64,000 bases of DNA from an uncultured Candidatus Saccharibacteria bacterium (GTDB lineage Bacteria; Patescibacteriota; Minisyncoccia; Phycocordibacterales; UBA918): assembly GCA_964402035.1 (NCBI GenBank), contig CAYOAM010000002.1, forward strand, positions 106,111-170,110, read 5' to 3'. Below are positions 4,515-63,088 of the stretch, in pieces. Made by a program: the position numbers and the translations under genes. Within the stretch, counting starts at the first letter, position 1; every line of letters begins with the position of its first letter. Under the pieces are notes generated by a model. It was not told the DNA's origin, ran no database searches, and was given only the letters and a program-made list of their open reading frames with translations.

Positions 4515-4575
4515 ACGTTTTTTAGGATGTGTATCCCAAGGACCGTCCTTGGGATTGCTGCCTGGTCTCAACAAT

Positions 4576-31976: not shown

Positions 31977-31979
31977 AGA

Positions 31980-32927: not shown

Positions 32928-33052
32928 ACCTAGAACATGTTTAAAAACCCATCTACTTCGTTGTCTGCGTCGCTCAAACCACTCATCGTATATCGAATAC
33001 TCGTCGGGTTCTCGCTTCTTGACGCCTCGTATCTGTAGTTTTTATCCATGTT

Positions 33053-34042: not shown

Positions 34043-34115
34043 ATTACTTCTAACCATTATGTGACGATAAACGTTGCTTAACGGTACCAAAAAACAAGCC
34101 TTAAAACAACCGCCA

Positions 34116-40020: not shown

Positions 40021-41403
40021 TTAATTATTTAATATCTTTTCTACAACACTGAAAAAACGTTCTCCTGATCGTCCATCGTACTTGTAACAAAAGGTTTCAA
40101 GCAGATGTTTCCGTTCAGTGCTCTTATAGGTCGCGTCGGTCAAATACTGATTGATGGCATTGTACAACATTTCCTTGTTTTGAACCTCAGTGGTTGCTTT
40201 AAAGGAGAGTATCTTGCTGTAGTAATACGTCTCATACCACCTTCTGATAGAGCTCCGATACGGCTTTTGAATATAGCCGTCAAACATAATGCTGATGACA
40301 GGAGTATCAAACGGCAACACATCAAGCGTAAGAGACGAGTGTACGTTGATATCGATATCTGTGTGATAAATGGTATTAAGAAACCTATCCATTGATGCAG
40401 TAGAATAATCCCACTCATCGCGAAAAGCGCGCGACGGTTCATTCTGCAGATCAACAACAACGTCAGGTTTTCCAAACAAATGCTTAAATTTCTGTTCGTC
40501 CTGTTTAAATCCATAGTGCGGTCGAATCAAGAGCTGGCACGGCTGCTCTAAGAGCCCCTTCTCAATTGCAGTATATATAACCGACGAAAGCTCACTATCC
40601 TCTTTAAATAATTTTCCCTCTGACGTAAACAGCAAGATTTTTTTCTTTGGATCTAAACCGTACGCAGCACAAAAGGCTTCACGTGTCTGTAACCGTGTGC
40701 TGTCTATATAATAATCAAACTGCGGTACCCCAATGATGCTGATCTGTGCATCCGAATAATTTTGAAATTTCTTCATCTCTTCGGCCATAAGGGTATTCCA
40801 TACGATGACCATGTCCGCCTTCGCACGAAACCCATTTTTATTTGGATTATCCCAACTTTTTGGCATAGCGAGAGAATACACGCGCTCCCGCCTAGCAGCT
40901 TTGAGGAGCGCAGCCTCAGCGTCATCTCCCATATTGGTCACAATAACCATATCGGCTTTTTGCTCACGCAAAAAATGCTGCCAGTGACTGACAGCAGGCC
41001 GCTGCGCAAAGTAAAAATCAAGCACTCGGACAAAATCTCGCAGTATGGTGACGCGCGAGAGAACAGAAAATATAACTTTCTTTATGAAATAAATGGGATA
41101 GAAAACTCGCATGGATTTTGGATCTCCAATAATTCCCCATCGGGCTTTTTGATTGACCGTCGAATTGTAGATCAAGTATTTATGGAAAAAGAAAAGAATT
41201 AAATCAAGTGGCCCTCGATCGAGCACCTCCTGATCAAACATCTCCACGTTCGCATGTGCGAATTCCTTCAGAAAACGTGGATCCTCAAACGCTGGTGTCA
41301 CCAACAAAACACGATACTTCTCGCGAAGTAATCGATAGAAATCATTCTGCAAAATATTACGTGCTATAGATCCACGCGAAATTGTTAGCACGACCGTTTT
41401 CAT
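40021..41403 (-). CDS. GT-B-like glycosyl / glycerophosphotransferase-family protein (TagF/KpsS-like), paralog B.
   Basis: See 37961-39316. Confidence 0.45.
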   Translation of the reverse strand: MKTVVLTISRGSIARNILQNDFYRLLREKYRVLLVTPAFEDPRFLKEFAHANVEMFDQEVLDRGPLDLILFFFHKYLIYNSTVNQKARWGIIGDPKSMRVFYPIYFIKKVIFSVLSRVTILRDFVRVLDFYFAQRPAVSHWQHFLREQKADMVIVTNMGDDAEAALLKAARRERVYSLAMPKSWDNPNKNGFRAKADMVIVWNTLMAEEMKKFQNYSDAQISIIGVPQFDYYIDSTRLQTREAFCAAYGLDPKKKILLFTSEGKLFKEDSELSSVIYTAIEKGLLEQPCQLLIRPHYGFKQDEQKFKHLFGKPDVVVDLQNEPSRAFRDEWDYSTASMDRFLNTIYHTDIDINVHSSLTLDVLPFDTPVISIMFDGYIQKPYRSSIRRWYETYYYSKILSFKATTEVQNKEMLYNAINQYLTDATYKSTERKHLLETFCYKYDGRSGERFFSVVEKILNN

Positions 41404-45259: not shown

Positions 45260-45974
45260 AAATCACCGTTTCCGCACAGAGACGTGGATCTACCTCAAAG
45301 CCAACTTTATAAAATCCTTCAATCATATCTTCCGATAACTCCAACATCTTTGCATTTGGAAAGGGCTTCAAAAACACTCCCGCATGATGTGCGACCTCTA
45401 AACCGGACGCCTCAACATCGGCACGCAACGTGTCAAAAGTATACACCAGTTGATGATTAAACATTTCGCGATCACGCGCAGACAGTTCAGTAGCGTCTTT
45501 CACAATCTCCATAGCTTTCCCTACGCGTCGATGGAGTGAAAGTCCATTGTGCGATGTAATAAAGATAAAACCACCGGGCGTTAGCCACGATGAGATCGTC
45601 TTGAGAAACGCTATCGGATCTTTGAGTGCTGGCAGAACACCCGCAAGCAAAATAGTGTCGTATTTTTTTGATGGCTTAAAATTCTCAAAAAAAGAGTGGT
45701 GGAACGATGCCCGAGTATATTCCTCTGGAAATGCACGCCTGATCCGCTCAGCGGTAAAAAGCACTTGCTCCTCTGAGGCGTCCACAACATCAAGAGACGC
45801 CGTGTTTGGAAACACCCACTCCGTCATGAGTCCTGTCGCACACCCTAACTCGAGAGTGTCACCGAGATTCTCACGGTATTTCCACAGTTCGTTGCACTTA
45901 TATTTCAAAAGGTACCGATCAAAATCTTTCTCGTTGTCGTACCGCGCAGCGTATGACTCATAATCGAAGGTCAT
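45243..45974 (-). CDS. Class I SAM-dependent methyltransferase.
   Basis: Motif I TLELGCATGLMTEW is present. It overlaps the GT2 gene by 17 nt. Confidence 0.7.
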   Translation of the reverse strand: MTFDYESYAARYDNEKDFDRYLLKYKCNELWKYRENLGDTLELGCATGLMTEWVFPNTASLDVVDASEEQVLFTAERIRRAFPEEYTRASFHHSFFENFKPSKKYDTILLAGVLPALKDPIAFLKTISSWLTPGGFIFITSHNGLSLHRRVGKAMEIVKDATELSARDREMFNHQLVYTFDTLRADVEASGLEVAHHAGVFLKPFPNAKMLELSEDMIEGFYKVGFEVDPRLCAETVICAVKK

Positions 45975-47083
45975 GCCGTTTCCTTAAAAAACTCCTTGAT
46001 CGTATCGGTGACAAAGAGTACCTGCGCGTACGTAAGCTCCGCATACATTGGGAGCGACAGAATTCTTCGCGCAAGCGTTTCAGTGTGTGGAAACGCCCCT
46101 TCAGCATACCCCAGATGGCGGTACGGTTGTGCAAGATGAATCGGGTTTGGATAATGAATACCTGTATGGATATCATGCTCCTTCAGGTACGCCTGCAGTT
46201 GGTCGCGTCTCCCGGTTTGTATGACAAAAAGATGGTAATTCCCCTTTGAATAAGAAGGCTCAATCGGCAACGCCACATCACCGACACCCATAAGGAGACG
46301 CGCGTAGGTTCTCGCGTGCGTACGACGCATTTCATTCCACGCATCAAGATGCGGAAGTTTGACCCCAAGAACTGCTCCTTCGATTCCGCTCATACGAAAA
46401 TTCCCACCAAGCACCTCGTGCGTGTACTTCACCCTACTTCCATGATCTCGCATGAGACGCACGCGATCTGCGAGAGCAGCATCGTCGGTTGCGATAGCAC
46501 CACCTTCTCCGTATGTTCCCAAATTTTTCCCTGCATAAAAACTAAAAGTACTTGCAGTACTCCCACCACCGATCTTTGTCCCTTTGTATAGTGTACCGTG
46601 AGCCTGCGCTGCATCTTCGAGGAGAAAAATATTCTTTTCTGCTGCGAGCGCCCGGAGCGGGTCAAGGTCAACGGACTGCCCGTAGAGATGCACAGGCATG
46701 ATCGCTTTTGTGCGCGCAGTGATCTTCTCGCGAACTCGCAATGCATCTATATGGTAGGTAACCGGATCCACATCCACAAAGACCGGTGTAGCTCCAACGA
46801 ATGAGATTGCGGCTGCGGTCGCAATAAACGTGTGTGCTGGAATAATTACTTCGTCACGCGGACCAATATCGAGCGCGCGCAAGACAAGCTGAATCGCATT
46901 TGTGCCGTCAGAGACAGCAACCACATGTCCAACTCCCAAGTACTCCTGAAACGCTTTCTCGAAGGCGGCAACGGCTGGCCCCGACGCATACGCCGAAGTA
47001 TCGAGGATGTGATGAATTGCTTCATCAATATCCTTTTTTATAGATTGATATTGGGCTTGTAAATCAAGAAATGGTACGTGCAT
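45971..47083 (-). CDS. DegT/DnrJ/EryC1/StrS-family PLP-dependent sugar aminotransferase.
   Basis: The protein covers the whole family fold. The PLP-lysine region FSFYAGKNLGTYGEGGA matches the DegT pattern SF..(T/G)K.....(E/D)GG. Confidence 0.85.
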   Translation of the reverse strand: MHVPFLDLQAQYQSIKKDIDEAIHHILDTSAYASGPAVAAFEKAFQEYLGVGHVVAVSDGTNAIQLVLRALDIGPRDEVIIPAHTFIATAAAISFVGATPVFVDVDPVTYHIDALRVREKITARTKAIMPVHLYGQSVDLDPLRALAAEKNIFLLEDAAQAHGTLYKGTKIGGGSTASTFSFYAGKNLGTYGEGGAIATDDAALADRVRLMRDHGSRVKYTHEVLGGNFRMSGIEGAVLGVKLPHLDAWNEMRRTHARTYARLLMGVGDVALPIEPSYSKGNYHLFVIQTGRRDQLQAYLKEHDIHTGIHYPNPIHLAQPYRHLGYAEGAFPHTETLARRILSLPMYAELTYAQVLFVTDTIKEFFKETA

Positions 47084-52330: not shown

Positions 52331-53344
52331 TCACTCTAATATAATCTGTACACCGCCTGAAGCAAGCGATAGATCGGCAGCCTCCAAAATACGCACGACC
52401 GCAAGACCAGCTTCTCCATTGGTGAGTGTTGCTTCACCCGTCTTCAGAGCAGCGAGAAAATGCAAACACTCACGCTGTAGCGCTTCCTGGCCATCATACA
52501 TGGGAATATGCACGTCGCCACTGCGATATACCGGCTCAAAGGTATTGAGATCCATTTCATCAAGGTCGATACCTTTGTTGTACACTTTTATTTTTTCAAA
52601 TGGATGTATGTCATCAAAGTAGATCATCTTTTTGTGACCACCAATAGTCATCTGCCGTAATTTTACCGGCGAAAGCCAACTCACATGAATGTGCGCCACA
52701 AACCCTGACTCATACTGTATTGACACATGCGCCAGTTCGGCACCTTTCCGCACCACATGTCCGGTCCCCACTGCCGAAACGCTCTTTGGGGTACCACCAT
52801 AAATATAGTTGAGTATGGCAATGTCATGTGGCGCAAGGTCCCAAAACACATTTACATCGGGCTGAATAAGACCGAGATTGATGCGCGACGAATCAAAGTA
52901 GAAGAGATCTCCAAGCTCGCCTGAATCAACAATTTCTTTTATTTTTCGCACCGGACCATAATAAATAAACGTGTGATCAACATGCAAAATAAGGTTATTC
53001 TTTTTTGCGATAGCGATAAGTTCACGCGCCTGCGCTGACGTCTCGGTCATCGGCTTTTCCACGAATACATGTTTGCCACTTTCGAGCGCTCGCTTGGCAA
53101 GCGCAAAGTGCGTACGTACAGGAGTCGCTATCACCACCACATCAAGATTCGGGTCATTAAAAAGTATGTCGGCATCAGTCACCAACGTTGTGTGCTTATA
53201 CGCTTCACGATACCGCTCTAGTCGTTCAGGTTTTGCATCGCATATATAGGATAGTGTGCACTCACGCAACGAATCAAAGTTGCGGATGAGATTACCCCCC
53301 CAATATCCAGCACCAATAATACCAACAGTTACTCTAGGTTCCAT
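52331..53344 (-). CDS. Gfo/Idh/MocA-family oxidoreductase (WbpB / UDP-GlcNAcA 3-dehydrogenase-like or inositol-dehydrogenase-like).
   Basis: The N-terminus VGIIGAGYWGGNLIRNF, the EKPMT motif and the C-terminal alpha/beta domain are classical Gfo/Idh/MocA features. Confidence 0.8.
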   Translation of the reverse strand: MEPRVTVGIIGAGYWGGNLIRNFDSLRECTLSYICDAKPERLERYREAYKHTTLVTDADILFNDPNLDVVVIATPVRTHFALAKRALESGKHVFVEKPMTETSAQARELIAIAKKNNLILHVDHTFIYYGPVRKIKEIVDSGELGDLFYFDSSRINLGLIQPDVNVFWDLAPHDIAILNYIYGGTPKSVSAVGTGHVVRKGAELAHVSIQYESGFVAHIHVSWLSPVKLRQMTIGGHKKMIYFDDIHPFEKIKVYNKGIDLDEMDLNTFEPVYRSGDVHIPMYDGQEALQRECLHFLAALKTGEATLTNGEAGLAVVRILEAADLSLASGGVQIILE

Positions 53345-53481
53345 ATACAGTGGCTCGATACATTATAATACTCCGCAAATGCCTGTTTAGTAACAACAAA
53401 TGACCAATACGGCAACAAAGTACAGGAGTTGGACATGTATGTGATTTGTACCAGACCCCACAAACAACAAGCACCTCTATA

Positions 53482-54201
53482 TTAGAATTCCCCCGCTTCA
53501 GCTACGGCCAATTCCTCGGGAGTATCTATTTCAAACCAATCACATACCCCAACATCTTGCGCGGTGATGATCCGTCCTTGTGCAATTTCTTCTCGAAAGA
53601 TATGCTCCACAGTTGTCGTCACGGGATCCAATTCTTTTTTCAATTTTTCTACGACCCTGCGCATCGCCGGCATGCGCTCCGCAGACACAAACCAGAATCC
53701 CGTATAGATCGCGTCAAAGTCCGTGAGCGTTTTTGACATCGCAAGCACACGGTTCCCCTCCGCCACTTTTATTGTCATCACATCATCAGCGTTACCCCTA
53801 AGATCAAAACTACCGTACACCGAAAAATCATGGAGCTGTGTTTTCATGGCTGCGAGCGTGTGTGGTCGCATCACGTAGTCTACATTGATAACAAATATGG
53901 ACTCATCGTCATGGACGAGTGGCAATGCAGCATCAAGACTTAGGAGATTTTGCATGGTGTACTGCGTGTTTTCGACGACCTCAATTGATGGATCTATGGC
54001 ATGTACCGTACGTGCTAGATCTTCAAAATAAAACCCGCCAACAACAATAATTCGAGAAAGCCCCAGTGCCCGCGCATGGTCAATAGCATACTGGACGAGT
54101 GGTTTGCCATGCACTTCGACAAGCGCTTTCGGCTTAGTTGTTGTGAGCTCACGCATCCGCTTCCCCATCCCAGCAGCCAAAATTATTCCAACAGTGTTCA
54201 T
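53482..54201 (-). CDS. Sugar-phosphate / phospho-alcohol nucleotidyltransferase (NTP_transferase, LicC/MurU-like).
   Basis: The N-terminus GIILAAGMGKRMRELTTTKPKALVEV is the nucleotidyltransferase signature motif. It is 239 aa. Confidence 0.75.
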   Translation of the reverse strand: MNTVGIILAAGMGKRMRELTTTKPKALVEVHGKPLVQYAIDHARALGLSRIIVVGGFYFEDLARTVHAIDPSIEVVENTQYTMQNLLSLDAALPLVHDDESIFVINVDYVMRPHTLAAMKTQLHDFSVYGSFDLRGNADDVMTIKVAEGNRVLAMSKTLTDFDAIYTGFWFVSAERMPAMRRVVEKLKKELDPVTTTVEHIFREEIAQGRIITAQDVGVCDWFEIDTPEELAVAEAGEF

Positions 54202-54213
54202 ATGATATGCGTG

Positions 54214-55158
54214 TTACTCAATACTCTTCAATAATACACGCTCATCCTCATTCGTAAAATCTATAAAGCGCTCCATACATTGGAGCGAAGCAGCTACAGC
54301 ATGTTCCTTGTCTCGCACCGCAGCAAAAGGACCAATAAACACTTCTCGCACCAATCGATATTTAAATGCAGCTACTAAGGAATCTCGCTCAACCAGAGTC
54401 AGCTTCCGTACCGATTGATATCCACTCATGAATGCGTAGCAGCGGTCAAATGACAATCGTGATCCATCATACCCCTCCCACAGCAATGTCGTCATCATAT
54501 CGTGGAGAAATGTTCCATAGTACGCATTATCAAAATCAATAATACCGGTCACGGTACCGCCCCGCAAAATGATATTCTCCTTCTTTGTATCTTGGTGCGT
54601 TATGCCGGTCGGTAACGTGGGAGGAAATACAAATGACGCATGGTGTGTTTCAAAAAAATCAACAACGACATCAAAACCTGGTATCTCTGAATCAAGAAAT
54701 AATTCCCGATGTTTAACAAATAGCATCGAAAGACTTTCTCCTTCCCAAACTGTTTTCTTGGCACACGACACGGTAGCAGCCGGTATCGTATGCATCCGCG
54801 CAAGTAGCAGTCCCACCACCCTGAGCTGATCCGTATTAAGTGAACCCGCGACATCACCTGGAATAAAGGTCGCGAGAATAGATGGTTTGTTTTCAAAATC
54901 TGTGGCGAGCGCACCGCTACGTGTCGGTACGAGAACGGGAGAAGGAAAACCAACAGTACGCAACGCTTCTAGGATGGAGAGCTCACAGAGAATTTCTTCT
55001 GCTGTTTTCTCTTCATAGATTCGGAGCACAAATGCACCATGGTCGGTTTCAATTTTAAAACTTGAATTCACCTTTCCTCCTCGAAATGTTTCGGTACCAC
55101 GTACCACGTACCCATAATGCTCTCGCACATGCGCTTCAATCTGAGGTGCGGTATACAT
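54214..55158 (-). CDS. APH / choline-kinase-like phosphotransferase family kinase.
   Basis: The Brenner motif HQDTKKENIIL and IDFDNAYYG (the DFD/DxD metal site) are present. It is 314 aa. Confidence 0.7.
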   Translation of the reverse strand: MYTAPQIEAHVREHYGYVVRGTETFRGGKVNSSFKIETDHGAFVLRIYEEKTAEEILCELSILEALRTVGFPSPVLVPTRSGALATDFENKPSILATFIPGDVAGSLNTDQLRVVGLLLARMHTIPAATVSCAKKTVWEGESLSMLFVKHRELFLDSEIPGFDVVVDFFETHHASFVFPPTLPTGITHQDTKKENIILRGGTVTGIIDFDNAYYGTFLHDMMTTLLWEGYDGSRLSFDRCYAFMSGYQSVRKLTLVERDSLVAAFKYRLVREVFIGPFAAVRDKEHAVAASLQCMERFIDFTNEDERVLLKSIE

Positions 55159-55161
55159 ACG

Positions 55162-57036
55162 CTAAGCCTTTGACTTGTTGATATCGACAGCGCGGCGCAA
55201 TACCTCAAAATCTACCGGCACGCTATATACTCCGCGATCGTGCCAAATCGTGCCCACTGATTGTGGCAACGCCATATGTGGCAGCCCTTTGACATAGTGT
55301 TTGTCATAATGGAGCGCATTCAAAATATCATCAGCAGTGATGAGTGCTGGCACGGTTGTCGGTAGTTTGTATCGTTCCAAGAGATCATAGTGCATGCGTA
55401 CCGTTTCCTTGTCAGCGATCCCCAAAAGCCGCGCCACCTCCGCAGACACAGCCATCCCAATAGCCACCGCCTCCCCATGCAACAGTTCATATGACGAGAG
55501 GTGTTCAAGCGCATGACCAACGCTGTGTCCATACTGCGGCAACATTTCATTGCGATCGTTATAGACATCACCATTGAGCAGTGGGACCTTAAGGGCAATC
55601 GTCGTTTTAATAATATCTTCAAGCACATCAACATCCCCGAGGCGATCAGCATACCCGAGCAGAGTTTCTACGAATGCTGGATCTTGGGTCAAGGCATGCT
55701 TGAGCGATTCAGCGATTCCATTGCGTAAATGTCGTGGATCGAGCGTGAGGAGAACTTCAGGATCAATGAGGATTTTAGTTGCTGGATAATAGCTACCGAT
55801 AAGATTTTTTCCTGATCGCGAATTGATAGCCTGCTTAAAATCAAGAGCGGCATCCACCTGCGACATCGACGATGTTGAAATATGCATGAGCTCAATACCG
55901 CGGTACAACGTTGACGCAAGCACACCCGCAAGGTTATTAACGACACCTCCTCCCAGCGAAAAGATAATGGAATTTTTATCCATACCGTATGAAAAAACTC
56001 CGTCAGCAATATGTGAATATTCATCAATATTTTTTGACTGCTCCCCTTCTGGTACGACGAATTTTTTGACGTTATACCCGCATTCAAGAAAACTATTGAG
56101 TACCGCGTCGCCGTAGAGTGCATCAACACGATCGTCGGTCACGATAAAGTGCGCTGAATCTGCTTTCTTCTCTGGAATAAGACGAATCGCTCCAAGATTT
56201 TTTATCAGTCCTCGTTCAACCACGATATCGCTCTCCATATGTTTATCGCGCGTGAAAAAAGAAAAACGAGTGGTATCACGCATTGCGCTACGTGAAGCAT
56301 GTTTCTCTCGCGGCTGCTCCATATTGCGTACGAGCATGTTGGCACGCACATGGATTGCTGGAGTATTCACGTCGTACCAATCATCGTACGGCCATGGTAT
56401 AAGTCCCAATGATTTTTCTTCCGAAAGTGCTCGCAATAATTCTTCAAAACGATTGATACTTTTTGCAGCAATAAGATTTCCCATTTCAATGTGCCGTCCA
56501 AATGGTACGACATACACCCCGGCTTCAACCGCATTATGATCCTCTATGTCAGTACCGATATGTGTTGCTGAGCCGTCGACAATACGAACGCGCGATTGTG
56601 CACCCGAACGAGCAAGGTGTTCAAGGTCAGTTCCAACCAGTGTATAGAGAGCGTGCGATCCATCGCGCGCTATATCCATAAGACTTACAAATGGATTTTG
56701 CGCAAAAACCAAATCGGCCATCGTCACAATCGTGGGAGCATTGCAGGTCGTGCATCCCACCAAAAATGATGAGAGCAGTCCCTGTACTCCTGCATCCTGT
56801 TGATCGGCAAAAGAAATGCGTGCGGTAATATCATGATGTCCGGTAAGCTCGCGGCGTATTTCATCGCCGCGGTATCCGACCACAATTAAAATATCTTCAA
56901 TGCCTGCTTCTTCAAGCTGGTGCACGAGACGAACAATCATCGGCTCGTGACCAATGCGTACGAGTGGTTTCGGGTTATCGTGCCGATCAAGTCGTGCTCC
57001 CTTTCCCGCTGCAAGAATAACTGCCTTTGGTTTCAT
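55162..57036 (-). CDS. Fusion protein: an N-terminal nucleotidyltransferase (MobA/IspD/IPCT-like) joined to a C-terminal 3-dehydroquinate-synthase (AroB)-family sugar-phosphate cyclase domain.
   Basis: The N-terminus KAVILAAGKGARL is the NTP-transferase motif. The C-terminal roughly 330 aa align closely with AroB across these blocks: FVVPEGEQSKNI (compare VVLPDGEQYKSL), LGGGVVNNLAGVLASTLYRGIELMHISTSSMSQVDAAL..K (compare [41 protein letters not shown]), GKNLIGSYYPA (compare GKNMIGAFYQP), and YGHSVGHALE...LLHGEAVAIGM (compare LGHTFGHAIE...WLHGEAVAAGM). Confidence 0.75.
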   Translation of the reverse strand: MKPKAVILAAGKGARLDRHDNPKPLVRIGHEPMIVRLVHQLEEAGIEDILIVVGYRGDEIRRELTGHHDITARISFADQQDAGVQGLLSSFLVGCTTCNAPTIVTMADLVFAQNPFVSLMDIARDGSHALYTLVGTDLEHLARSGAQSRVRIVDGSATHIGTDIEDHNAVEAGVYVVPFGRHIEMGNLIAAKSINRFEELLRALSEEKSLGLIPWPYDDWYDVNTPAIHVRANMLVRNMEQPREKHASRSAMRDTTRFSFFTRDKHMESDIVVERGLIKNLGAIRLIPEKKADSAHFIVTDDRVDALYGDAVLNSFLECGYNVKKFVVPEGEQSKNIDEYSHIADGVFSYGMDKNSIIFSLGGGVVNNLAGVLASTLYRGIELMHISTSSMSQVDAALDFKQAINSRSGKNLIGSYYPATKILIDPEVLLTLDPRHLRNGIAESLKHALTQDPAFVETLLGYADRLGDVDVLEDIIKTTIALKVPLLNGDVYNDRNEMLPQYGHSVGHALEHLSSYELLHGEAVAIGMAVSAEVARLLGIADKETVRMHYDLLERYKLPTTVPALITADDILNALHYDKHYVKGLPHMALPQSVGTIWHDRGVYSVPVDFEVLRRAVDINKSKA

Positions 57037-57099
57037 TACGCGGATTATAACAGAGTGTACTGACTTTTAGTGGCAATATTTTTATCACTGAGGTGCTAA

Positions 57100-57128
57100 T
57101 TGATTTAAAGTTAAAATCGTTGTATAAT
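57100..57128 (+). promoter_or_regulatory. Sigma-70-type promoter: TTGATT (-35) at 57100-57105, a 17-nt spacer, and TATAAT (-10) at 57123-57128.
   Basis: This is a consensus-quality -35/-10 pair with optimal spacing, about 58 nt upstream of the IMPase-family ATG at 57186. A GGAG ribosome-binding site sits 6 nt before that ATG. Confidence 0.6.
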
Positions 57129-57185
57129 CGCATCACGTTGTTCTTACGTTCTTCATATCTTGCCCTTGAACCCCTGGAGAGAAAA

Positions 57186-58031
57186 ATGCTGTTTCCATCT
57201 CGTTTTGGTGTAGCAATGAACGCTGTCACCGAGGGTGCCAAGATTGTGCGACAACTCGCCGACACTCATCTTCAGTCAGCGAGCAAAGGGGGTAACTTCC
57301 GTGATCTGAAAACCGCGGCTGATGATGCTTCTGAATCCGCGATCACCAAACTTATCGGTCAGTATTTCCCCCAAGATGCAATCTATGCAGAAGAGAGCTG
57401 GAAGGCCGGCGATCGCATCGACCCAGAGAAAATGACATGGGTCATTGATCCGGTGGATGGCACCACTAACCTGGCTGCTGGCATATCTTTGGTGGCAGTC
57501 GGTCTTGGACTCATGCAAGTTGGTGTTGTTCGATTCGGAGTCATCAAAGACATCTTCAAACAAGAAACCTATTGCTCCGAGGAAAGTGGCGAAGCGTACT
57601 TCCTGTCAGACGGAGCACGTATCGCGATCAAGGTCTGTGTGAACACTGACCTTCAAGCAGGCTTGATCGTCTACGACATGCCCGGTGCAAGTAACCGAAT
57701 TCCGCTCGTCGAAGCCTTCATGCAAAAAGCAAATAGGCGTGCGCAAGCAGCACGGATCTTCGGCTGCGCACATCTTTCCCTCTGCTATCTGGCGAGAGGA
57801 CTGGTCGGAGGATACGTGAATGCCGACCTTCACGACTGGGACGTTGCACCAGGGCTTGCGCTAGTCGAACGTGCTGGTGGCATCATCACCGACTGGAAAG
57901 GAAACCTATGGGAGCCTCATGGCCGCAAGCATGGCATTATTGCGGCAGCGACCCCAGAGATCCACACGACTCTGTTGGGCTATGCCCGCGAGGTCATGGC
58001 GAAAACGGGTATTGATCCAGCGACGATCTGA
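57186..58031 (+). CDS. Inositol monophosphatase / FIG-family phosphatase (SuhB/CysQ-like).
   Basis: WVIDPVDGTTNLAAG is the IMPase motif (DP[IL]DGT). I set the start at the ATG at 57186 (MLFPSRFG) because the track start at 57093 lies upstream of the promoter. Confidence 0.75.
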   Translation: MLFPSRFGVAMNAVTEGAKIVRQLADTHLQSASKGGNFRDLKTAADDASESAITKLIGQYFPQDAIYAEESWKAGDRIDPEKMTWVIDPVDGTTNLAAGISLVAVGLGLMQVGVVRFGVIKDIFKQETYCSEESGEAYFLSDGARIAIKVCVNTDLQAGLIVYDMPGASNRIPLVEAFMQKANRRAQAARIFGCAHLSLCYLARGLVGGYVNADLHDWDVAPGLALVERAGGIITDWKGNLWEPHGRKHGIIAAATPEIHTTLLGYAREVMAKTGIDPATI

Positions 58032-58053
58032 TCAACTCTGGACCTCTACTCAA

Positions 58054-58100
58054 CCGAGCACTTCTTTTTTTGTTTGAAAAAGAAGTGCTCGGTATTTTTA
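58054..58100 (+). terminator. Rho-independent terminator: a perfect 16-bp stem (ccgagcacttcttttt / aaaaagaagtgctcgg), a 7-nt loop, then UAUUUUUA.
   Basis: Verified as an exact inverted repeat. It lies 23 nt after the IMPase stop. Confidence 0.75.
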
Positions 58101-58213
58101 TCTCAATCGACCACGCCACCACGCACCATTGACATAAGTCAATACTCATGCTACTTTGCCGGAGGTTCTGTGAGGGATAGTCTCTCGCAGGGTTCTACAC
58201 ATGGAGTTCAGAC

Positions 58214-59011
58214 ATGCTCGTCAATGTGCCACTTCCCACTCGATTTGATCCGGAATGTCTCCGCGCCTTCGAATGGAGCGAGGGACGACGCCATATCGTC
58301 GCTCTCGGCCCCTATGGCCGCCACGGCAATGTGATCCTCTGCACCCAGTTTGGGTCACAGAAGGCAATCTTCGCCGACGGCAAGGAACACCCGTATACGG
58401 CAGTTCTTGGTCTCGTCGCCAAGGATGGTGGACTCAACACCTACGGCGGACACGTGATCCCGATCCTGCCCAACGGCAACGTGCTCATGGTTCATGTGCC
58501 CCGACCGGCACTCCTCGCGATCCCACGGAGACGCCGTACGAATATCATCGAGTTCCTCGACGGCAGAGAATCCTACGATCTTGGCCCCATCGGCGAAGCG
58601 GAAATCCCGGGGGGCACAGTGGAACTCGGCGTGACAGTTAAGGTCGGTGCATTGCTTGAGTTGCTCCAAGAACTCGGCCTCAAGGTGATCGAAAATTGCG
58701 AGTTCATCACTCGCAACGACCTGGTCGGATCACTCATCTCCGAGTTCGCCATTCAGATCGGCATCCATGCAATCAAGCTGCCAGCGAATATCGGCGCAGA
58801 ACACCTCAAGTATGTCAGGGATGACGGCGGACTCTATGTACTCAGCCTTTCGCAGGCGGAGATCAAGCACAACAAACGACGCGGTGTCTTTGGTACTGGC
58901 TCAACGCATGCATGTCTCCGTTTCCTTGCGGATCTCAACGACCCCGCGGAATACGAAGCTATGCTCGCAAAGGGCGAGATCACGGTGACCAGAGAGACCC
59001 TGCGCCTCTGA
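58214..59011 (+). CDS. Hypothetical protein of 265 aa, possibly a Nudix-fold-like protein with a non-canonical Nudix box.
   Basis: It is a strongly GC-rich ORF, by eye near 60% against about 45% in flanking DNA. GGHVIPILPNGNVLMVHVPRP ... GGTVELGVTVKVGALLELLQELGL loosely resembles a Nudix beta-grasp and box, but the E and R residues are not canonical. A GGAG ribosome-binding site sits 7 nt before the ATG. Confidence 0.5.
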   Translation: MLVNVPLPTRFDPECLRAFEWSEGRRHIVALGPYGRHGNVILCTQFGSQKAIFADGKEHPYTAVLGLVAKDGGLNTYGGHVIPILPNGNVLMVHVPRPALLAIPRRRRTNIIEFLDGRESYDLGPIGEAEIPGGTVELGVTVKVGALLELLQELGLKVIENCEFITRNDLVGSLISEFAIQIGIHAIKLPANIGAEHLKYVRDDGGLYVLSLSQAEIKHNKRRGVFGTGSTHACLRFLADLNDPAEYEAMLAKGEITVTRETLRL

Positions 59012-59029
59012 TCACAACTGCCACCACTC

Positions 59030-59072
59030 GAGCCCTGCACACACTGTGCAGGGCTCTTTTTCTTTATTTTTT
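59030..59072 (+). terminator. Rho-independent terminator: a 12-bp stem (gagccctgcaca / tgtgcagggctc), a 3-nt loop, then UUUUUCUUUAUUUUUU.
   Basis: Verified inverted repeat. The hairpin core is identical to the copy at 59567-59602. Confidence 0.8.
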
Positions 59073-59106
59073 AGAAAACACTATCTATTGCTAAAGTACA
59101 AAATAC

Positions 59107-59556
59107 ATGGTATATTTTTGCATAGGTTCAACCCTCAAGGAGGCTCACATACAAGATGAATTGAAGGCAACAAAGGTCGGCTCTCTTCAAATCACCGCGG
59201 TCGGTGTCCCGACCGCAGAGACTTCAGAAGGTTTTCTTGTGGTCCCCGTACAGCTGGAGAACGGCTCCTTTAGGCTTATGGCGAGAAGGAGTCCTACACT
59301 GCCGTTTTTCCCGCTTAAGATCGATCTCACTTCAGAAAAGACGCATTCAGCGGATGAAATTTTCGAGAACGCTTCGTGTATGCCCCAAGTCACGATGATC
59401 TCGAGACATTTCGAGACCGACCTCGAAATACAAGTCTGGAATACCGAACAGACAGGGTTCTTGATCATCAAGACAATCGAGATCTCGGAGAATCAATTCC
59501 AAAAGACCGACATCTACGAGATCAAGCCGGTTCGATACAGAAGACAGTCTTCTTGA
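59107..59556 (+). CDS. Hypothetical protein of 149 aa.
   Basis: It is an ORF between two identical terminators with an AAGGAGG sequence just inside its 5' end. The true start may be an internal TTG or ATG after that ribosome-binding site. Confidence 0.45.
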   Translation: MVYFCIGSTLKEAHIQDELKATKVGSLQITAVGVPTAETSEGFLVVPVQLENGSFRLMARRSPTLPFFPLKIDLTSEKTHSADEIFENASCMPQVTMISRHFETDLEIQVWNTEQTGFLIIKTIEISENQFQKTDIYEIKPVRYRRQSS

Positions 59557-59566
59557 TCTCTCTCGT

Positions 59567-59602
59567 GCCCTGCACACACTGTGCAGGGCTCTTTTTCTTT
59601 AT
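59567..59602 (+). terminator. Rho-independent terminator, a second copy of the gccctgcacaCACtgtgcagggc hairpin, followed by UCUUUUUCUUUAU.
   Basis: The hairpin core is identical to the one at 59030-59056. Confidence 0.75.
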
Positions 59603-59622
59603 GTACAGCGTACAATGTTCCT

Positions 59623-60321
59623 ATGAAGGCGGCAGATAATCATCACATTGGGCGTGAAAAGATGTTGACTGGTGATGTGCACGTATTCCCCACACGAGAC
59701 AGCTGGCCAAAAACGTGGGCATCGGATGCACATCTTGCTGGTCTCTGCTCCAATATGTCTGAGCAGATGGTATACGAAAAAGTAATAACCCCTCTCGTCG
59801 ACCTCGGAAAGTCTACATATATTCAAGGGTGGTTTGCACATATCGACTCACCACTTCATGCAACCATTCTCTCAGGGGACACTAGTACAGAAAAAGCACT
59901 TCCCCCACAAACGAAAAACATATACGACCTTATAGCAAAAGACCCTGAGGTTATTTTTATTCGTACCCTCCTACAAAATCTCACTGCCACATTCGATTTT
60001 GTGTGCAATAACGGGGACAACATCACGCTCAATTGTACGCATATCCCAAGCGAGATTCTGATCGCTCGTACTCGCATGGCAAGTGTGTATCGACGCTTTG
60101 GGCTTCGTGTACATACGATAGAGGATTTTTTCCATATGACCGTGATGCGTATACGTACGCTACCTGAAGTAAATACACATGCAAGCCTTACTACATTTGT
60201 TGAAAGAGTTGATGCACTCCATGAAAAAATACTGCAGGATCCAATCGTTGTGACCTTTGATACCATCTGGTTTGGCTATGATATGCAACGCAAGACACGC
60301 ACGGAGCTGCTCTCTCAATAA
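59623..60321 (+). CDS. Hypothetical protein of about 232 aa.
   Basis: The track ORF begins at a GTG at 59581 inside the terminator hairpin. The first ATG after the terminator, at 59623 (MKAADNHHIG...), is the more plausible start. I recognised no family. Confidence 0.45.
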   Translation: MKAADNHHIGREKMLTGDVHVFPTRDSWPKTWASDAHLAGLCSNMSEQMVYEKVITPLVDLGKSTYIQGWFAHIDSPLHATILSGDTSTEKALPPQTKNIYDLIAKDPEVIFIRTLLQNLTATFDFVCNNGDNITLNCTHIPSEILIARTRMASVYRRFGLRVHTIEDFFHMTVMRIRTLPEVNTHASLTTFVERVDALHEKILQDPIVVTFDTIWFGYDMQRKTRTELLSQ

Positions 60322-60356
60322 AACTTCCTCTCTATTTCATTTGTTATACTTGTCGC

Positions 60357-61100
60357 ATGAAAACCATAATCGTCACCGGCGCAAGCCAAGGGATCGGAAA
60401 GGCTATTGCAGCACGCCTTTTGCGTGATGGGTATGGTGTTATTGGCATAGCACGAGACCCACAAAAACTCGCAGTGGTAGCCGAAGAATTTAATACCGCC
60501 AATTTTACACATCACTCTTTTGATATTGCCGACCAAAAAGCAATAGCGGATTTTGCTCTTAGACTACACGGTCAAGAAATTTTTGCTGTGGTAAATAATG
60601 CTGGTATCTGCAAAACTGCACGCATCGATGAAGTGGAAGAAACGGATCCGTGGGATGAAGTCTTGGCAACCAACCTCACAGGTGTCAAAAACCTCACGCA
60701 AGCACTCATCCCACTATTGCATAATAGTGGTCGCATTATAAATATTTCTTCACAACTTGGAAAAGAAGGTCGTGCAGGATACAGCGCCTATTGCGCATCA
60801 AAATTTGGTCTCATTGGTCTTACCAAAGTATGGGCAAAAGAACTCGGTGCTCGCAACATCACGGTCAATGCCATCTGCCCTGGTTGGGTAGAGACTGACA
60901 TGACCGATACTGATCTTGGTCGTCTTGCTGAAGAAGCAGGAACGACGCTCCCACTGTTACGCAAGAGCATTACGGACCAACTCGAAATGGGAACTATGAA
61001 TAAGCCAGAAGATATAGCGGGCATGGTTGCATACCTACTTTCACCGGATGCTGATCGAATTTCTGGTCGCGACTTTCTTCTTCAACAAGTGACAAATTAA
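60357..61100 (+). CDS. Short-chain dehydrogenase/reductase (SDR), FabG-like.
   Basis: The cofactor motif TGASQGIGKAIA (TGxxxGIG) and the catalytic motifs NNAG and YxxxK (YSAYCASK) are present. Confidence 0.85.
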   Translation: MKTIIVTGASQGIGKAIAARLLRDGYGVIGIARDPQKLAVVAEEFNTANFTHHSFDIADQKAIADFALRLHGQEIFAVVNNAGICKTARIDEVEETDPWDEVLATNLTGVKNLTQALIPLLHNSGRIINISSQLGKEGRAGYSAYCASKFGLIGLTKVWAKELGARNITVNAICPGWVETDMTDTDLGRLAEEAGTTLPLLRKSITDQLEMGTMNKPEDIAGMVAYLLSPDADRISGRDFLLQQVTN

Positions 61101-61144
61101 AAAAAACCGCGCAAGGCCATATGGTCTTGCGCGGTTTTTTTTAT
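61099..61144. terminator. Bidirectional intrinsic terminator: an A-tract, the hairpin ccgcgcaaggcc-atat-ggtcttgcgcgg, then a T-tract.
   Basis: A 12-bp stem (with one G-U pair in the plus-sense RNA) is flanked by A8 and T10. It lies between the converging SDR gene (+) and the CDP-alcohol phosphatidyltransferase gene (-). Confidence 0.75.
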
Positions 61145-61153
61145 TGTCTAGAC

Positions 61154-61924
61154 CTATTTCTTTGCCACCACCGTGTTTGTCATAAAGAATCGTACCTGCT
61201 TTGCAAAAAGAAGTACGTACAATCCTACGAAACTGACCGCGTAGAAATAAAGGAAGTAATCCATATGCATGAACCACGTGGCGATCAAAAGTGGCCCCAC
61301 TATAGCCGGATAGCTGTAGATATTCTTGTTCCAAAAATCAAATGACCGCACGTACCATGGTCGCGCATCGAGTGCTGCATTTTGTACATCTTTGTTTTCG
61401 CGCTCAGTGCCCAGATACACAATCATCCAAAAACGAAGTTCCAGTGCCCGGAACATAAGTTTTGCAAGTGATGCTGCGGCTCCCGCATAGAGTACCCAAA
61501 CCTCTCCAGTCTGCTCAAAAATCGCAACGCCCAAAAGCATAAAGAAAAGGCTGTACATAATATCGTGACTCACTGGCTCCACGTACTGCCCACCCACAAC
61601 ACTCTGCGCGTAGCGGAAGCGTGCCACTTCCCCATCAACACCATCAAGAATGATCGAGAGAAAATAAAATACTGGTCCCCAGAGCTGCACCGAGAGATCA
61701 GACGAGAAGTAGCATGCAACTCCCATAAAGAAGACAATCACTCCAATCACTGAAATTTGATTTGGTGTAAACGGTAGTCGCAGAAAAACGTACGTGAGAT
61801 AAATGGAGAAAATTCGAGTGAAGCGACCAAGCTTACTTTCTTTTGCTGGATTTGGTGCAGTCGCCTGACACACTGCGCGAAGCTCTTTGATACCAAATGC
61901 CTTAAGGTCTCGTGGTTCGTTCAT
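61154..61924 (-). CDS. CDP-alcohol phosphatidyltransferase family protein.
   Basis: DGVDGEVARFRYAQSVVGGQYVEPVSHD matches D-G-x2-A-R-x8-G-x3-D-x3-D. It is a multi-TM protein. Confidence 0.8.
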   Translation of the reverse strand: MNEPRDLKAFGIKELRAVCQATAPNPAKESKLGRFTRIFSIYLTYVFLRLPFTPNQISVIGVIVFFMGVACYFSSDLSVQLWGPVFYFLSIILDGVDGEVARFRYAQSVVGGQYVEPVSHDIMYSLFFMLLGVAIFEQTGEVWVLYAGAAASLAKLMFRALELRFWMIVYLGTERENKDVQNAALDARPWYVRSFDFWNKNIYSYPAIVGPLLIATWFMHMDYFLYFYAVSFVGLYVLLFAKQVRFFMTNTVVAKK

Positions 61925-61966: not shown

Positions 61967-63088
61967 TTACCTTTTTTCTCTGGCTACTTTTTCAAGTATT
62001 CGCCGCCCTCTGACTATCCACGTATACTCATGGACGTGGTTAAAGGCATAGGCTGCACGCACTGCAGCCTCAGTCACATCTTCAAGTACGGTACTAATAA
62101 CAGAGCTTAGAGACTGAACGTTGCCAGCCTCAAAGAAAAAAACGTCCTTATCGCTCACGATGGCTCGCAAGCTTGGAATATCAGAAACGATAGTTGGCTT
62201 TCGCGATGCCATATGTGCAAACAGCTTTATCGGTGATGTGTACACGGTCGATTCCGCATTTGATGGAATATTTGGAACGACGAGCGCATCAGCCGCTTGC
62301 TGATTTTTGGCGAGTTCTCGATACGGTCTTGTACCAAGGAATCGTACGGTTGGATATTTTTTTTGTAGCACTGCGACCTGCTCTACGTTTCCACCAATGA
62401 TCACGACGCAAACATCGTGTGCTAACAGTGGAGCAGCTGCGCATAACGTGTCGACCCCCTTCCAGTACTCAAGAGCACCAACATACATCACGATGCGTGC
62501 ATTGAGTGGCAGACCGAGTTCGCTCCGCACATTACGCGCATCGTATTCTTTTTCAAATTCAGAAAGAGCAATACCATTGTGAGAGACCATCGTCTGCATG
62601 AGACCGTGCGCATGACACGCTCGCTCGGTCCCTTCTGAATTACATGGGATACAATCTACACGTCTTAAAAAATACGCAAAGAGTGAACCAAATGACTCAG
62701 GCCAATCGTGCACCTCGCAGACCACCGTATATCCACGCATCTTGTATAGCCAAGCTATTTCAGCACTACGTGTAAAGATAAGTGCAGCATGCGGGGGTGT
62801 ATGAAATAACAGTCGCACTAAAAATAATGCTGAATGAACGTACTGTACTATGCGACCAAAACGTCCAAAATGGGAGACGAGATCTGGTGACCATAGATAT
62901 CGAACATTAAAGCACGTACGTAAACCGTAGTAGGAAAAAATATCTTCTGAAATCGGATTTTGTCGCCTTGGAATCGTCAGTATTACCGTATGACCCAATT
63001 CCGCAAACGCTTCACACATGTGAGCAATCTGAAGACCATGCGCTTTCTCGGTCGGCATGCGAGCCTGCACAATATATTCAATCTGCAT
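61967..63088 (-). CDS. Family 4 (GT-B) glycosyltransferase.
   Basis: The N-terminal Glyco_transf_4-like region (PTEKAHGLQIAHMCEAFAELGH) and the C-terminal GT1/GT4 EX7E-region are present. Confidence 0.75.
   Translation of the reverse strand: MQIEYIVQARMPTEKAHGLQIAHMCEAFAELGHTVILTIPRRQNPISEDIFSYYGLRTCFNVRYLWSPDLVSHFGRFGRIVQYVHSALFLVRLLFHTPPHAALIFTRSAEIAWLYKMRGYTVVCEVHDWPESFGSLFAYFLRRVDCIPCNSEGTERACHAHGLMQTMVSHNGIALSEFEKEYDARNVRSELGLPLNARIVMYVGALEYWKGVDTLCAAAPLLAHDVCVVIIGGNVEQVAVLQKKYPTVRFLGTRPYRELAKNQQAADALVVPNIPSNAESTVYTSPIKLFAHMASRKPTIVSDIPSLRAIVSDKDVFFFEAGNVQSLSSVISTVLEDVTEAAVRAAYAFNHVHEYTWIVRGRRILEKVAREKR

Follow-up and report, generated by a model that had tools for sequence, protein, structure and literature searches.

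To our knowledge, secondary metabolism (aminoglycosides, C7N-aminocyclitols, sunscreens and the cryptic ebo cluster) is almost the only known source of non-shikimate sugar-phosphate cyclases, and a CDP-cyclitol building block has so far not been known in bacterial cell walls. A review of cyclitol biosynthesis from 2026 lists 3-dehydroquinate synthase (DHQS), aminoDHQS, the synthase of 2-deoxy-scyllo-inosose (DOIS), EEVS, EVS, DDGS and EboD/DEIS, and nothing in it resembles a fusion of such a cyclase to a nucleotidyltransferase (NTase) (PMC12904256). A literature search likewise returned nothing relevant on NTase-DHQS fusions, CDP-cyclitols, cyclitol teichoic acids, or the biosynthesis of caryose or bradyrhizose by a DHQS-like enzyme. 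Here we describe an NTase::cyclase fusion encoded in a 64-kb window (by which we mean the whole stretch of DNA analysed) of a 461.7-kb metagenomic contig, CAYOAM010000002.1. With a probability of roughly 60 per cent, the gene set to which it belongs constitutes a route to a CDP-activated carbocyclic polyol, followed by phosphate-linked transfer to an envelope glycan or lipid. The arrangement of domains, the conserved residues, the separate clade, the synteny, the fused genes and the non-orthologous displacements were observed directly, whereas substrate, product, order of steps, nucleotide and final acceptor are proposed from sequence comparison. The core of the original prediction, that a cyclase other than AroB leads to a cyclitol which is activated by a nucleotide and destined for a glycan or lipid, is well supported by the residues, the clade, the synteny and the fusions with reductase and kinase.

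Several described systems share parts of this logic. Bcs1, a fusion of an NTase with a reductase, is a CDP-ribitol synthase, and the reductase Gtp1, the kinase Gtp3 and the cytidylyltransferase Gtp2 belong to superfamilies that match those of the cassette in the window. In these CDP-alditol systems of teichoic acids and capsules (TarI/TarJ, Bcs1, TagF/TarL and the pneumococcal CDP-2-glycerol route Gtp1-3/WchX, PMC1391919), as is proposed here, the alcohol-making enzyme is fused or adjacent to a cytidylyltransferase, the consumer is of the TagF family, and a kinase acts before the NTase, as Gtp3 does before Gtp2. The alcohol made here would, however, be a carbocycle formed by a phosphate-eliminating cyclase and not an acyclic alditol formed by simple reduction, and because the cyclase would eliminate the phosphate, a reductase and a kinase would both be needed. 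The CDP-inositol pathway of CTP:inositol-1-phosphate cytidylyltransferase (IPCT) and DIPPS in hyperthermophiles (2xme, 4mnd and AF2299, 4o6m) has in common with the window an IPCT-like NTase, a neighbouring CDP-alcohol phosphotransferase and, as proposed here, the conversion of a cyclitol phosphate to a CDP-alcohol, and an NTase together with a CDP-alcohol transferase also occurs in a putative inositol-lipid cluster of the Bacteroides vulgatus type (PMC9246714). In contrast to IPCT/DIPPS, the cyclitol of the window would originate from a DHQS-type cyclase, a reductase and a kinase instead of myo-inositol-phosphate synthase, the two NTases score 57 and 58 bits against the IPCT/DIPPS model NF041135, far below its cut-off of 580, the transferase motif is altered, and there is additionally a TagF-like enzyme as well as a further NTase.

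In the validamycin and acarbose pathways a DHQS-family cyclase, a kinase and an NTase lead, as is proposed here, to a nucleotide-activated carbocycle such as GDP-valienol (PMC9200736). Those are secondary routes of actinomycetes that start from sedoheptulose 7-phosphate (S7P) and employ ROK/glucokinase-type kinases, GlgC-like NTases and a pseudo-glycosyltransferase, whereas the present genes lie in an envelope locus of the Candidate Phyla Radiation (CPR) with IPCT-like NTases, APH or PfkB kinases, phosphotransferases and a cyclase of another clade. Against TIGR04425, a model of AroB-related cyclising phospholyases that we take to represent the EboD group, the window protein reached 178 bits, the cut-off being 400. 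EboD/DEIS resembles the proposed enzyme as a recently recognised DHQS-like hexose-6-phosphate cyclase outside antibiotic pathways (PMC12904256), but the ebo context contains a UbiA prenyltransferase, TatD-like genes and others. Judged by these comparisons, the system combines features of DOIS, IPCT/DIPPS, CDP-alditol and NDP-carbasugar pathways and appears to belong to none of them; the cyclase clade, the fusion architecture and the cell-envelope setting in CPR bacteria are new.

The fusion was found as an open reading frame exactly where it had been predicted, and both of its domains were recognised by Pfam (NTP_transf_3, PF12804, residues 5-119, E = 1.7e-14; DHQ_synthase, PF01761, residues 326-438, E = 2.5e-30; DHQS_C, PF24621, residues 440-580, E = 6e-29). 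Every AroB-type motif that had been quoted for it (KAVILAAGKGARL, GGGVVNNLAGVLASTLYRG, QVD, GKNLIG and HGEAVAIGM) is present. The fusion is real and not an artefact of assembly, because the identical two-domain architecture recurs in about 85 of the best 120 homologues in the database (31-74% identity) and because the AlphaFold2 model, computed with 105 sequences as input, is confident for both domains and for their mutual arrangement (pLDDT 93.8, pTM 0.90). The names under which family members are deposited are generic or wrong ('3-dehydroquinate synthase', 'iron-containing alcohol dehydrogenase', '2-deoxy-scyllo-inosose synthase'), and this systematic mis-annotation can now be corrected.

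Comparison of the active site showed that the cyclase domain keeps every catalytic residue and loses the residues by which DHQS recognises its own substrate. Among 105 family sequences, D395, K401, N411, E443, K446, H504, H508, H520, K579 and R379 are invariant and K483 is conserved in at least 90%; in this order they correspond to D146, K152, N162, E194, K197, H271, H275, H287, K356, R130 and K250 of Aspergillus nidulans DHQS. The invariant residues include all three metal ligands (E443, H504 and H520), and the NAD-binding GGG motif (G362-364) is invariant as well. The predicted structure matches DHQS, ValA and DOIS with target-normalised TM-scores of 0.85-0.9 (about 0.88 for DHQS), so that the fold and the NAD, metal and phosphate residues of the superfamily are all in place. 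Because the residues for NAD, metal and phosphate elimination are invariant, the domain is probably an active cyclase, and its pocket is probably neutral in the manner of DOIS.

The evidence on the substrate comes from a comparison with four DHQS, four DOIS (BtrC and three sequences annotated by PGAP in aminoglycoside-like clusters) and one S7P cyclase, the latter being a single PGAP-annotated sequence (S. clavuligerus, L052). The arginine that binds the carboxylate of the DHQS substrate 3-deoxy-D-arabino-heptulosonate 7-phosphate (DAHP) (A. nidulans R264, Escherichia coli R240) is Glu497 in the window and E, A, S or G throughout the family, and the asparagine of the phosphate site (A. nidulans N268, E. 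coli N244) is Gln501 in the window; glutamine occupies this position in 36 of 36 family sequences aligned with the references and in at least 90% of the 105. All four DHQS references have R and N at these two positions. DOIS has G or A in place of the arginine and, in place of the asparagine, Glu in four of four references (BtrC Glu243), and the S7P cyclase has Asp at the latter position. The family shares with DOIS not only the fold, the NAD+, metal and phosphate-elimination residues and the neutral pocket without the arginine, but also T143Q (the K-Q motif), D109N and L245Y, the Tyr before the G-H metal motif (E. coli numbering). It differs from DOIS by the glutamine in place of Glu243 and by retaining the lysine equivalent to DHQS K356, which is Asn in DOIS. 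The S7P-cyclase reference has M, P, D and V at the positions equivalent to K250, H275, N268 and K356, and the family differs from it at all four. Taking these residues together, the substrate is most likely a hexose 6-phosphate, for example glucose 6-phosphate, and the product a phosphate-free deoxy-inosose, which, as with DOIS, would need further tailoring. Two other substrates were considered. An amino-sugar phosphate, suggested by Glu497, was dropped because half of the fusions carry A, S or G at this position; a bisphosphate, which would imply that the kinase acts first, was judged unlikely as basic residues have been lost from the pocket, not added to it.

The phylogenetic placement of the AroB-like domain agrees with the separation seen in the pocket. 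In a neighbour-joining (NJ) tree (368 columns, 200 bootstraps) calculated with DHQS, DOIS and one S7P cyclase as the only reference groups, the fusions cluster with their standalone relatives in a single clade with 85.5% bootstrap support, apart from DHQS, DOIS and the S7P cyclase. DOIS forms its own clade (91.5%), and the grouping of the family with DOIS has only 20% support. AroB is the top match in sequence as well as in fold, and it has the identical catalytic scaffold: among solved structures the cyclase scored 150 bits with DHQS, 145 with the DOIS BtrC, 128 with ValA and 84 with DDGS. Nevertheless, with 257.3 bits the fusion stays below the cut-off of 305 of the aroB equivalog model TIGR01357, the DAHP-specific Arg and Asn are replaced, a shikimate context is lacking in the window and the related loci, and the clade is another one. 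By these residue and tree comparisons, the cyclase represents a new clade of sugar-phosphate cyclases and is not AroB. It is further set apart from DOIS by its genetic linkage, namely fusion to an NTase and association with a reductase, a kinase and phosphotransferases, whereas DOIS occurs with aminoglycoside genes (clusters L051 and L053).

The closest solved relative of the fused NTase is the Archaeoglobus fulgidus IPCT 2xme (residues 4-233, E = 9e-9), and IPCT/DIPPS 4mnd was found as well; in 25 fusions, G11, G13, R15, K23, D108, D222 and N224 show complete or almost complete conservation. The second, free-standing NTase of the window (NT2) shares only 27% identity with the fused NTase across 91 residues, and its top solved relative is 4jd0 (over the full length), which we take to be the IPCT of Thermotoga maritima, followed by LicC. 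Since both NTases are closest to IPCTs and LicC and the families encoded downstream use CDP-alcohols, CDP is the likely nucleotide of the activated cyclitol.

To see which genes travel with the fusion, about 40 related loci (designated by L numbers) were searched with every protein from its region of the window; 17 distinct loci from Patescibacteria had adequate flanks. The typical order in Patescibacteria is CDP-alcohol transferase, NTase::cyclase, reductase, APH kinase and second NTase, usually with a Methyltransf_23 gene downstream. The kinase adjoins the fusion in all 17 loci, and NT2 accompanies the kinase in essentially all of them. The nearest solved relative of the kinase is homoserine kinase II (2ppq), and an NTase::cyclase::APH-kinase triple fusion of 929 amino acids is encoded at L022:5782-8571. 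Both kinase and NT2 had been predicted correctly as genes; the suggestion that they form an ordinary LicA/LicC or AmgK/MurU pair is weakened by the triple fusion as far as the kinase is concerned, but may still hold for the second NTase. In four loci (L018, L020, L038 and L039) a PfkB kinase replaces the APH kinase. These are GC-rich non-CPR metagenome-assembled genomes (MAGs), labelled Bradymonadales or proteobacterium, and carry a minimal fusion-SDR-PfkB cassette (SDR, short-chain dehydrogenase/reductase) from which NT2 is missing. One such cassette (L020:9803-13569) is located among housekeeping genes (LigA, ThiI) outside any glycan locus, and the NDP-cyclitol of such cassettes may have a different, possibly soluble fate.

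The SDR, which had been correctly predicted as a gene, proved to be a conserved partner of the cassette. In the window it is 3.3 kb away from the fusion and on the opposite strand, whereas its orthologues are directly beside the fusion in L003-L012 (205-252 bits) and next to the standalone cyclase in loci of proteobacteria (208-234 bits). NTase::cyclase::SDR triple fusions (about 860-910 amino acids) with the SDR at the C-terminus were found in the proteins P0012, P0013, P0016 and P0020 and also at L005:9980-12724; these, like the kinase fusion of L022 also from other Patescibacteria, would be useful single-polypeptide targets for biochemical reconstitution. In nine loci of another subclade a Zn-dependent alcohol dehydrogenase (Zn-ADH) stands beside the fusion instead of the SDR. 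The triple fusions, together with the displacement of SDR by Zn-ADH and of APH by PfkB, indicate that reductase, kinase, NTase and cyclase belong to one pathway.

Further genes encode candidate transferases. The CDP-alcohol phosphotransferase-family gene is immediately upstream of the fusion in 17 of 17 Patescibacteria loci, and the best solved relatives of its product are AF2299 and IPCT/DIPPS 4mnd. Its presence had been predicted correctly, but its catalytic motif is not canonical: it reads DGxDGE(V/I)AR-x8-G-x3-EPxSHD instead of D-G-x2-A-R-x8-G-x3-D-x3-D, and in place of the last two canonical Asp a strictly conserved E-P-x-S-H-D is found in all 20 aligned sequences (that of the window and 19 homologues from L003-L037). 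The possibility that this protein is simply PgsA is unlikely, because the gene, like that of the SDR, is specifically linked to the cyclase. A TagF-like gene, a paralogue of it and a glycosyltransferase gene of family GT4 had been overlooked in the original prediction, and the TagF-like gene and GT4 are conserved partners. Homologues of the TagF-like protein (129-562 bits) are encoded within 10 kb of the fusion in 12 of the 17 loci and those of GT4 (131-242 bits) in 11 of 17; a search by sequence found no solved relative of the TagF-like protein. The five top solved relatives of GT4 are the inositol-directed enzymes MshA, PimA and PimB', the matches being weak (5e-6 to 3e-4) and confined to the C-terminal domain. 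This resemblance might mean that GT4 glycosylates the cyclitol.

Based on these data the following pathway is proposed. The cyclase domain would oxidise a neutral sugar monophosphate (a hexose 6-phosphate, e.g. glucose 6-phosphate) with NAD+, eliminate phosphate by beta-elimination, re-reduce the intermediate and close the ring by intramolecular aldol reaction, as in the chemistry of DHQS and DOIS, to give a phosphate-free deoxy-inosose. The SDR (Zn-ADH in other lineages) would reduce the ring ketone to a deoxy-cyclitol, the APH-type kinase (elsewhere PfkB) would convert this to a cyclitol phosphate, and the IPCT-like NTase domain of the fusion would activate the cyclitol phosphate to the NDP-cyclitol, presumably the CDP form. 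The earlier conclusion from the fusion, that a cyclitol phosphate is NDP-activated directly, had skipped two of these steps, since the removal of phosphate by the cyclase makes both the ketoreductase and the kinase necessary before the NTase can act. In Patescibacteria, the TagF-like enzyme(s), the variant CDP-alcohol transferase and GT4 would then hand on the activated cyclitol phosphate to an envelope glycan of the Wzx/Wzy type, a polymer resembling teichoic acid, or a lipid anchor. The four-enzyme pathway is directly testable, the fusions and displacements indicate which proteins should be combined, and it offers a route to new CDP-cyclitol tools.

Several observations weigh against this proposal or limit it. 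The placement of the clade with respect to DOIS and S7P cyclases comes from an NJ-only tree in which the decisive node has 20% support, and the substrate was assigned from pocket residues compared with few references, among them a single proxy for S7P cyclases; the glutamine at the position of Glu243 and the retained lysine mean that the cyclase is not simply a DOIS. NT2 is without an assigned role in the pathway. The motif of the CDP-alcohol transferase is such that activity cannot be presumed, an inverted 4-kb block parts this gene and the SDR from the fusion in the window, and in 3 of the 17 Patescibacteria loci no reductase was found within 10 kb. Finally, the standalone proteobacterial cyclase-SDR pairs (see below), whose surroundings of 10 kb contain neither a kinase nor a matching NTase, are unexplained by a simple model in which the free cyclitol must be activated.

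Other explanations of the gene set were weighed against the same evidence. That the DHQS-like domain cyclises nothing and acts simply as an NAD-dependent dehydrogenase of polyols or ketones from the DHQS/Fe-ADH superfamily, which together with kinase and NTase provides an acyclic CDP-polyol for the TagF-like enzyme, would fit the order of polyol, kinase, CTP-transferase and phosphotransferase in gtp1-3/wchX (PMC1391919), the CDP-glycerol or CDP-ribitol that TagF-like enzymes classically take (Pfam PF04464) and a weak Fe-ADH_2 match of the cyclase domain. It is nonetheless improbable: the domain matches DHQ_synthase models far better than those of glycerol-1-phosphate dehydrogenase (105 + 101 against 17.5 bits in Pfam, 257 against 25 in NCBIfam), the set for phosphate binding and elimination (equivalents of K152, N162, H275, K356 and R130), needless in a reductase of an unphosphorylated ketone, is invariant, and a separate obligatory, sometimes fused SDR or Zn-ADH would be redundant. 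A simple Gtp1-like role is further disfavoured because the joint presence of reductase and kinase is what a phosphate-eliminating cyclase predicts. A low probability is also given to an S7P cyclase leading to a valienol- or valiolol-type NDP-C7-carbasugar, with GT4 using the pseudo-sugar donor in place of a transfer as cyclitol phosphate. Such a sequence of EEVS, cyclitol kinase and NTase is established (PMC9200736), GT4 is conserved in many of the loci (see above), and the fold match to ValA equals those to DHQS and DOIS; but the family has several DOIS-type residues instead of the substitutions of the single S7P-cyclase reference, the NTases are IPCT/LicC-like and not GlgC-like, and the most tightly linked downstream genes encode phosphotransferases of the CDP-alcohol families, not pseudo-glycosyltransferases. 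Equally doubtful is the reversal of roles in which the cyclitol phosphate is an acceptor, to be condensed with CDP-diacylglycerol by the CDP-alcohol transferase in the manner of bacterial PIP synthase, dephosphorylated, e.g. by an inositol-monophosphatase (IMPase)-family enzyme, and glycosylated by GT4 to an anchor resembling phosphatidylinositol (PI) or its mannosides (PIM). For Bacteroides a variant of the Kennedy type was put forward (PMC9246714), the CDP-alcohol transferase matches models of archaetidylinositol-phosphate and PIP synthases, GT4 has PimA, PimB' and MshA as its top solved relatives, and an IMPase-family gene divergently adjoins the fusion in the window. One or both NTases would then be jobless, however, the IMPase gene does not travel with the cassette, the motif of the transferase departs from the canonical one, GT4 has weak matches that fall in its donor-binding domain, and the TagF-like gene suggests that a CDP-alcohol serves as donor.

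A 2-deoxystreptamine-like aminocyclitol route, in which a DOIS-type cyclase is followed by DegT transamination and Gfo/Idh/MocA oxidation, had been put forward alongside di-inositol-phosphate logic, and the DOIS-like pocket as well as the DegT gene and two Gfo/Idh/MocA genes in a common minus-strand array speak for it. Neither idea found support, since in the 17 Patescibacteria loci the fusion is not regularly accompanied by Gfo, DegT or IMPase genes, and both were rejected. For the aminocyclitol route, which we consider very unlikely, it can be added that Gfo homologues were found in 0 related loci, that DegT homologues occurred sporadically, in a few loci and far from the cassette, and that it is a ketoreductase, and no aminotransferase, that is conserved as the partner. 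The first of the Gfo proteins (Gfo1) is closest to UDP-GlcNAc 3-dehydrogenase (157 bits, NCBIfam) and probably belongs to a conventional amino-sugar route of the WbpB/WbpE type in the glycan island. An ordinary AroB of the shikimate pathway, adventitiously fused to an NTase, would explain the top NCBIfam and PDB sequence matches, which are AroB/DHQS, and the JGI label '3-dehydroquinate synthase', but was rejected as extremely improbable on account of threshold, pocket residues, clade and gene context. The host is a Parcubacterium, and in Parcubacteria the synthesis of aromatic amino acids is usually missing; no aro genes were found in the window or in the approximately 40 related loci, and the linkage to SDR, kinase, NTase and phosphotransferase is constant.

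Returning to the CDP-cyclitol route, a more specific version of it is offered tentatively, at somewhat less than even odds: Parcubacteria and other CPR bacteria may make a new CDP-deoxy-cyclitol that becomes phosphodiester-linked in a teichoic-acid-like polymer or in a PI/PIM-like anchor, and the standalone pairs may be entry enzymes to O-antigen carbocycles. If true, this would be the first carbocyclic 'alditol' in any bacterial cell-envelope polymer, and the pairs of Burkholderia, Trinickia and Rhodopseudomonas would supply the enzymes, long sought, that lead into the carbocyclic sugars of O-antigens. The surface biochemistry of CPR bacteria, which live attached to hosts, is essentially unexplored, and a distinct, widespread clade in their envelope-glycan loci would extend cyclase chemistry to primary envelope structure.

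The standalone pairs consist of a cyclase 41-47% identical to that of the window, annotated as '2-deoxy-scyllo-inosose synthase', and an orthologous SDR, and are located inside O-antigen loci of the ABC-transporter type. They were found in Burkholderia multivorans (L001), in B. diffusa, Paraburkholderia atlantica and Trinickia symbiotica (L025-L027), in Rhodopseudomonas palustris BisB18 (L035: 9989-12893), in Sulfurovum and in Chloroflexi; in Rhodopseudomonas, Bradyrhizobiaceae and Chloroflexi a DUF5672 protein accompanies the pair. They may relate to carbocyclic O-antigen sugars such as caryose (Trinickia caryophylli) and bradyrhizose. R. palustris BisB18, B. multivorans, B. diffusa and T. 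symbiotica are culturable carriers suited to genetics and O-antigen chemistry. A further standalone homologue (P0091; 421 amino acids, 45% identical) is from the transcriptome of the amoebozoan Stygamoeba and may reflect contamination by an associated bacterium or horizontal transfer.

Table 1. Features of the window that were considered as parts of the cyclitol system or as its neighbours
Feature	Position	Strand	Basis and remarks
TagF-like paralogue, membership in the system uncertain	37961-39316	-	190 bits to the 40021-41403 product; weak PF04464 match
TagF-like CDP-alditol phosphotransferase (Glyphos_transf), proposed CDP-cyclitol consumer	40021-41403	-	PF04464, 44.9 bits (cut-off 22.1)
DegT aminotransferase	45971-47083	-	confirmed; no cassette partner
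GNAT/DegT hybrid ORF, 478 aa	50878-52314	-	74-residue DegT-like stretch and GNAT-like stretch
Gfo/Idh/MocA oxidoreductase	52331-53344	-	confirmed; no cassette partner
Second, free-standing NTP_transf_3 nucleotidyltransferase (NT2)	53482-54201	-	PF12804, E = 1e-18
APH-family kinase, proposed cyclitol kinase	54214-55158	-	PF01636, E = 8e-25; 3 bp downstream of the fusion
NTP_transf_3::DHQ_synthase fusion, 624 aa	55162-57036	-	ORF and Pfam domains
C-terminal sugar-phosphate-cyclase domain, residues ~270-624	55162-56229	-	PF01761 and PF24621; stop codon included
N-terminal nucleotidyltransferase domain, residues ~1-240	56317-57036	-	PF12804 and PF00483
IMPase-family phosphatase	57186-58031		from ATG 57186 (better start, GGAG ribosome-binding site); divergent from the fusion
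SDR ketoreductase, proposed inosose reductase	60357-61100	+	PF00106, E = 3e-52
CDP-alcohol phosphotransferase-family membrane protein, variant motif	61154-61924	-	PF01066, 32.5 bits (cut-off 22)
GT4 glycosyltransferase	61967-63088	-	PF00534 and PF13692

The view that all neighbours fit a cyclitol pathway held for the kinase, the NTase, the SDR and the CDP-alcohol transferase, but not for the IMPase, Gfo/Idh/MocA and DegT genes: these are genuine, but lack conservation with the cassette (Table 1). Near the other fusions no counterparts were found of the IMPase, of both Gfo/Idh/MocA proteins, of the GNAT/DegT hybrid, or of a His-phosphatase-like and a Nudix-like protein. The hybrid had been taken for a DegT aminotransferase but is not a full enzyme of this type, and may be degenerate or a novel hybrid. 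The fusion operon and the IMPase block are separated by a divergent intergenic region of 149 bp (57037-57185), in which an extended -10-like sequence (TGTATAAT) is present at 57121-57128 and the ribosome-binding site GGAG precedes the ATG at 57186.

The window is chromosomal and contains genes for SecA, GatB, Obg, GAPDH and MurB, and homologues of its SecA place the host among Patescibacteria of the Parcubacteria/Kaiserbacteria type. MAGs with cassettes of the Patescibacteria type (L006, L008, L011 and L022) are titled 'uncultured Gammaproteobacteria' or 'Candidatus Saccharibacteria' in third-party (TPA) assemblies, and these labels seem unreliable. The region from 28 to 64 kb is a single large envelope-glycan island with genes for NeuB, a CMP-sugar NTase, Ugd, Wzx, a Wzy_C/TPR protein, glycosyltransferases and methyltransferases. 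The Wzy_C protein (28399-30597) is O-antigen-ligase-like and has tetratricopeptide repeats (TPRs) at its C-terminus. A NeuB-family synthase, a 2-hydroxyacid dehydrogenase and a CTP_transf_3 cytidylyltransferase, encoded at 31212-34090 on the minus strand, suggest a nonulosonic or ulosonic acid (CMP-sugar) branch of the island. No tRNA genes were found in the 64 kb. At the other end of the window there is a giant open reading frame of 3204 codons (4576-14190, minus strand), followed by the gene for a 945-residue protein with three Laminin_G_3/pentraxin-like domains (1752-4589, minus strand), and a 523-residue fn3 protein is encoded at 14262-15833; all three are probably large surface proteins of the kind typical for CPR genomes.

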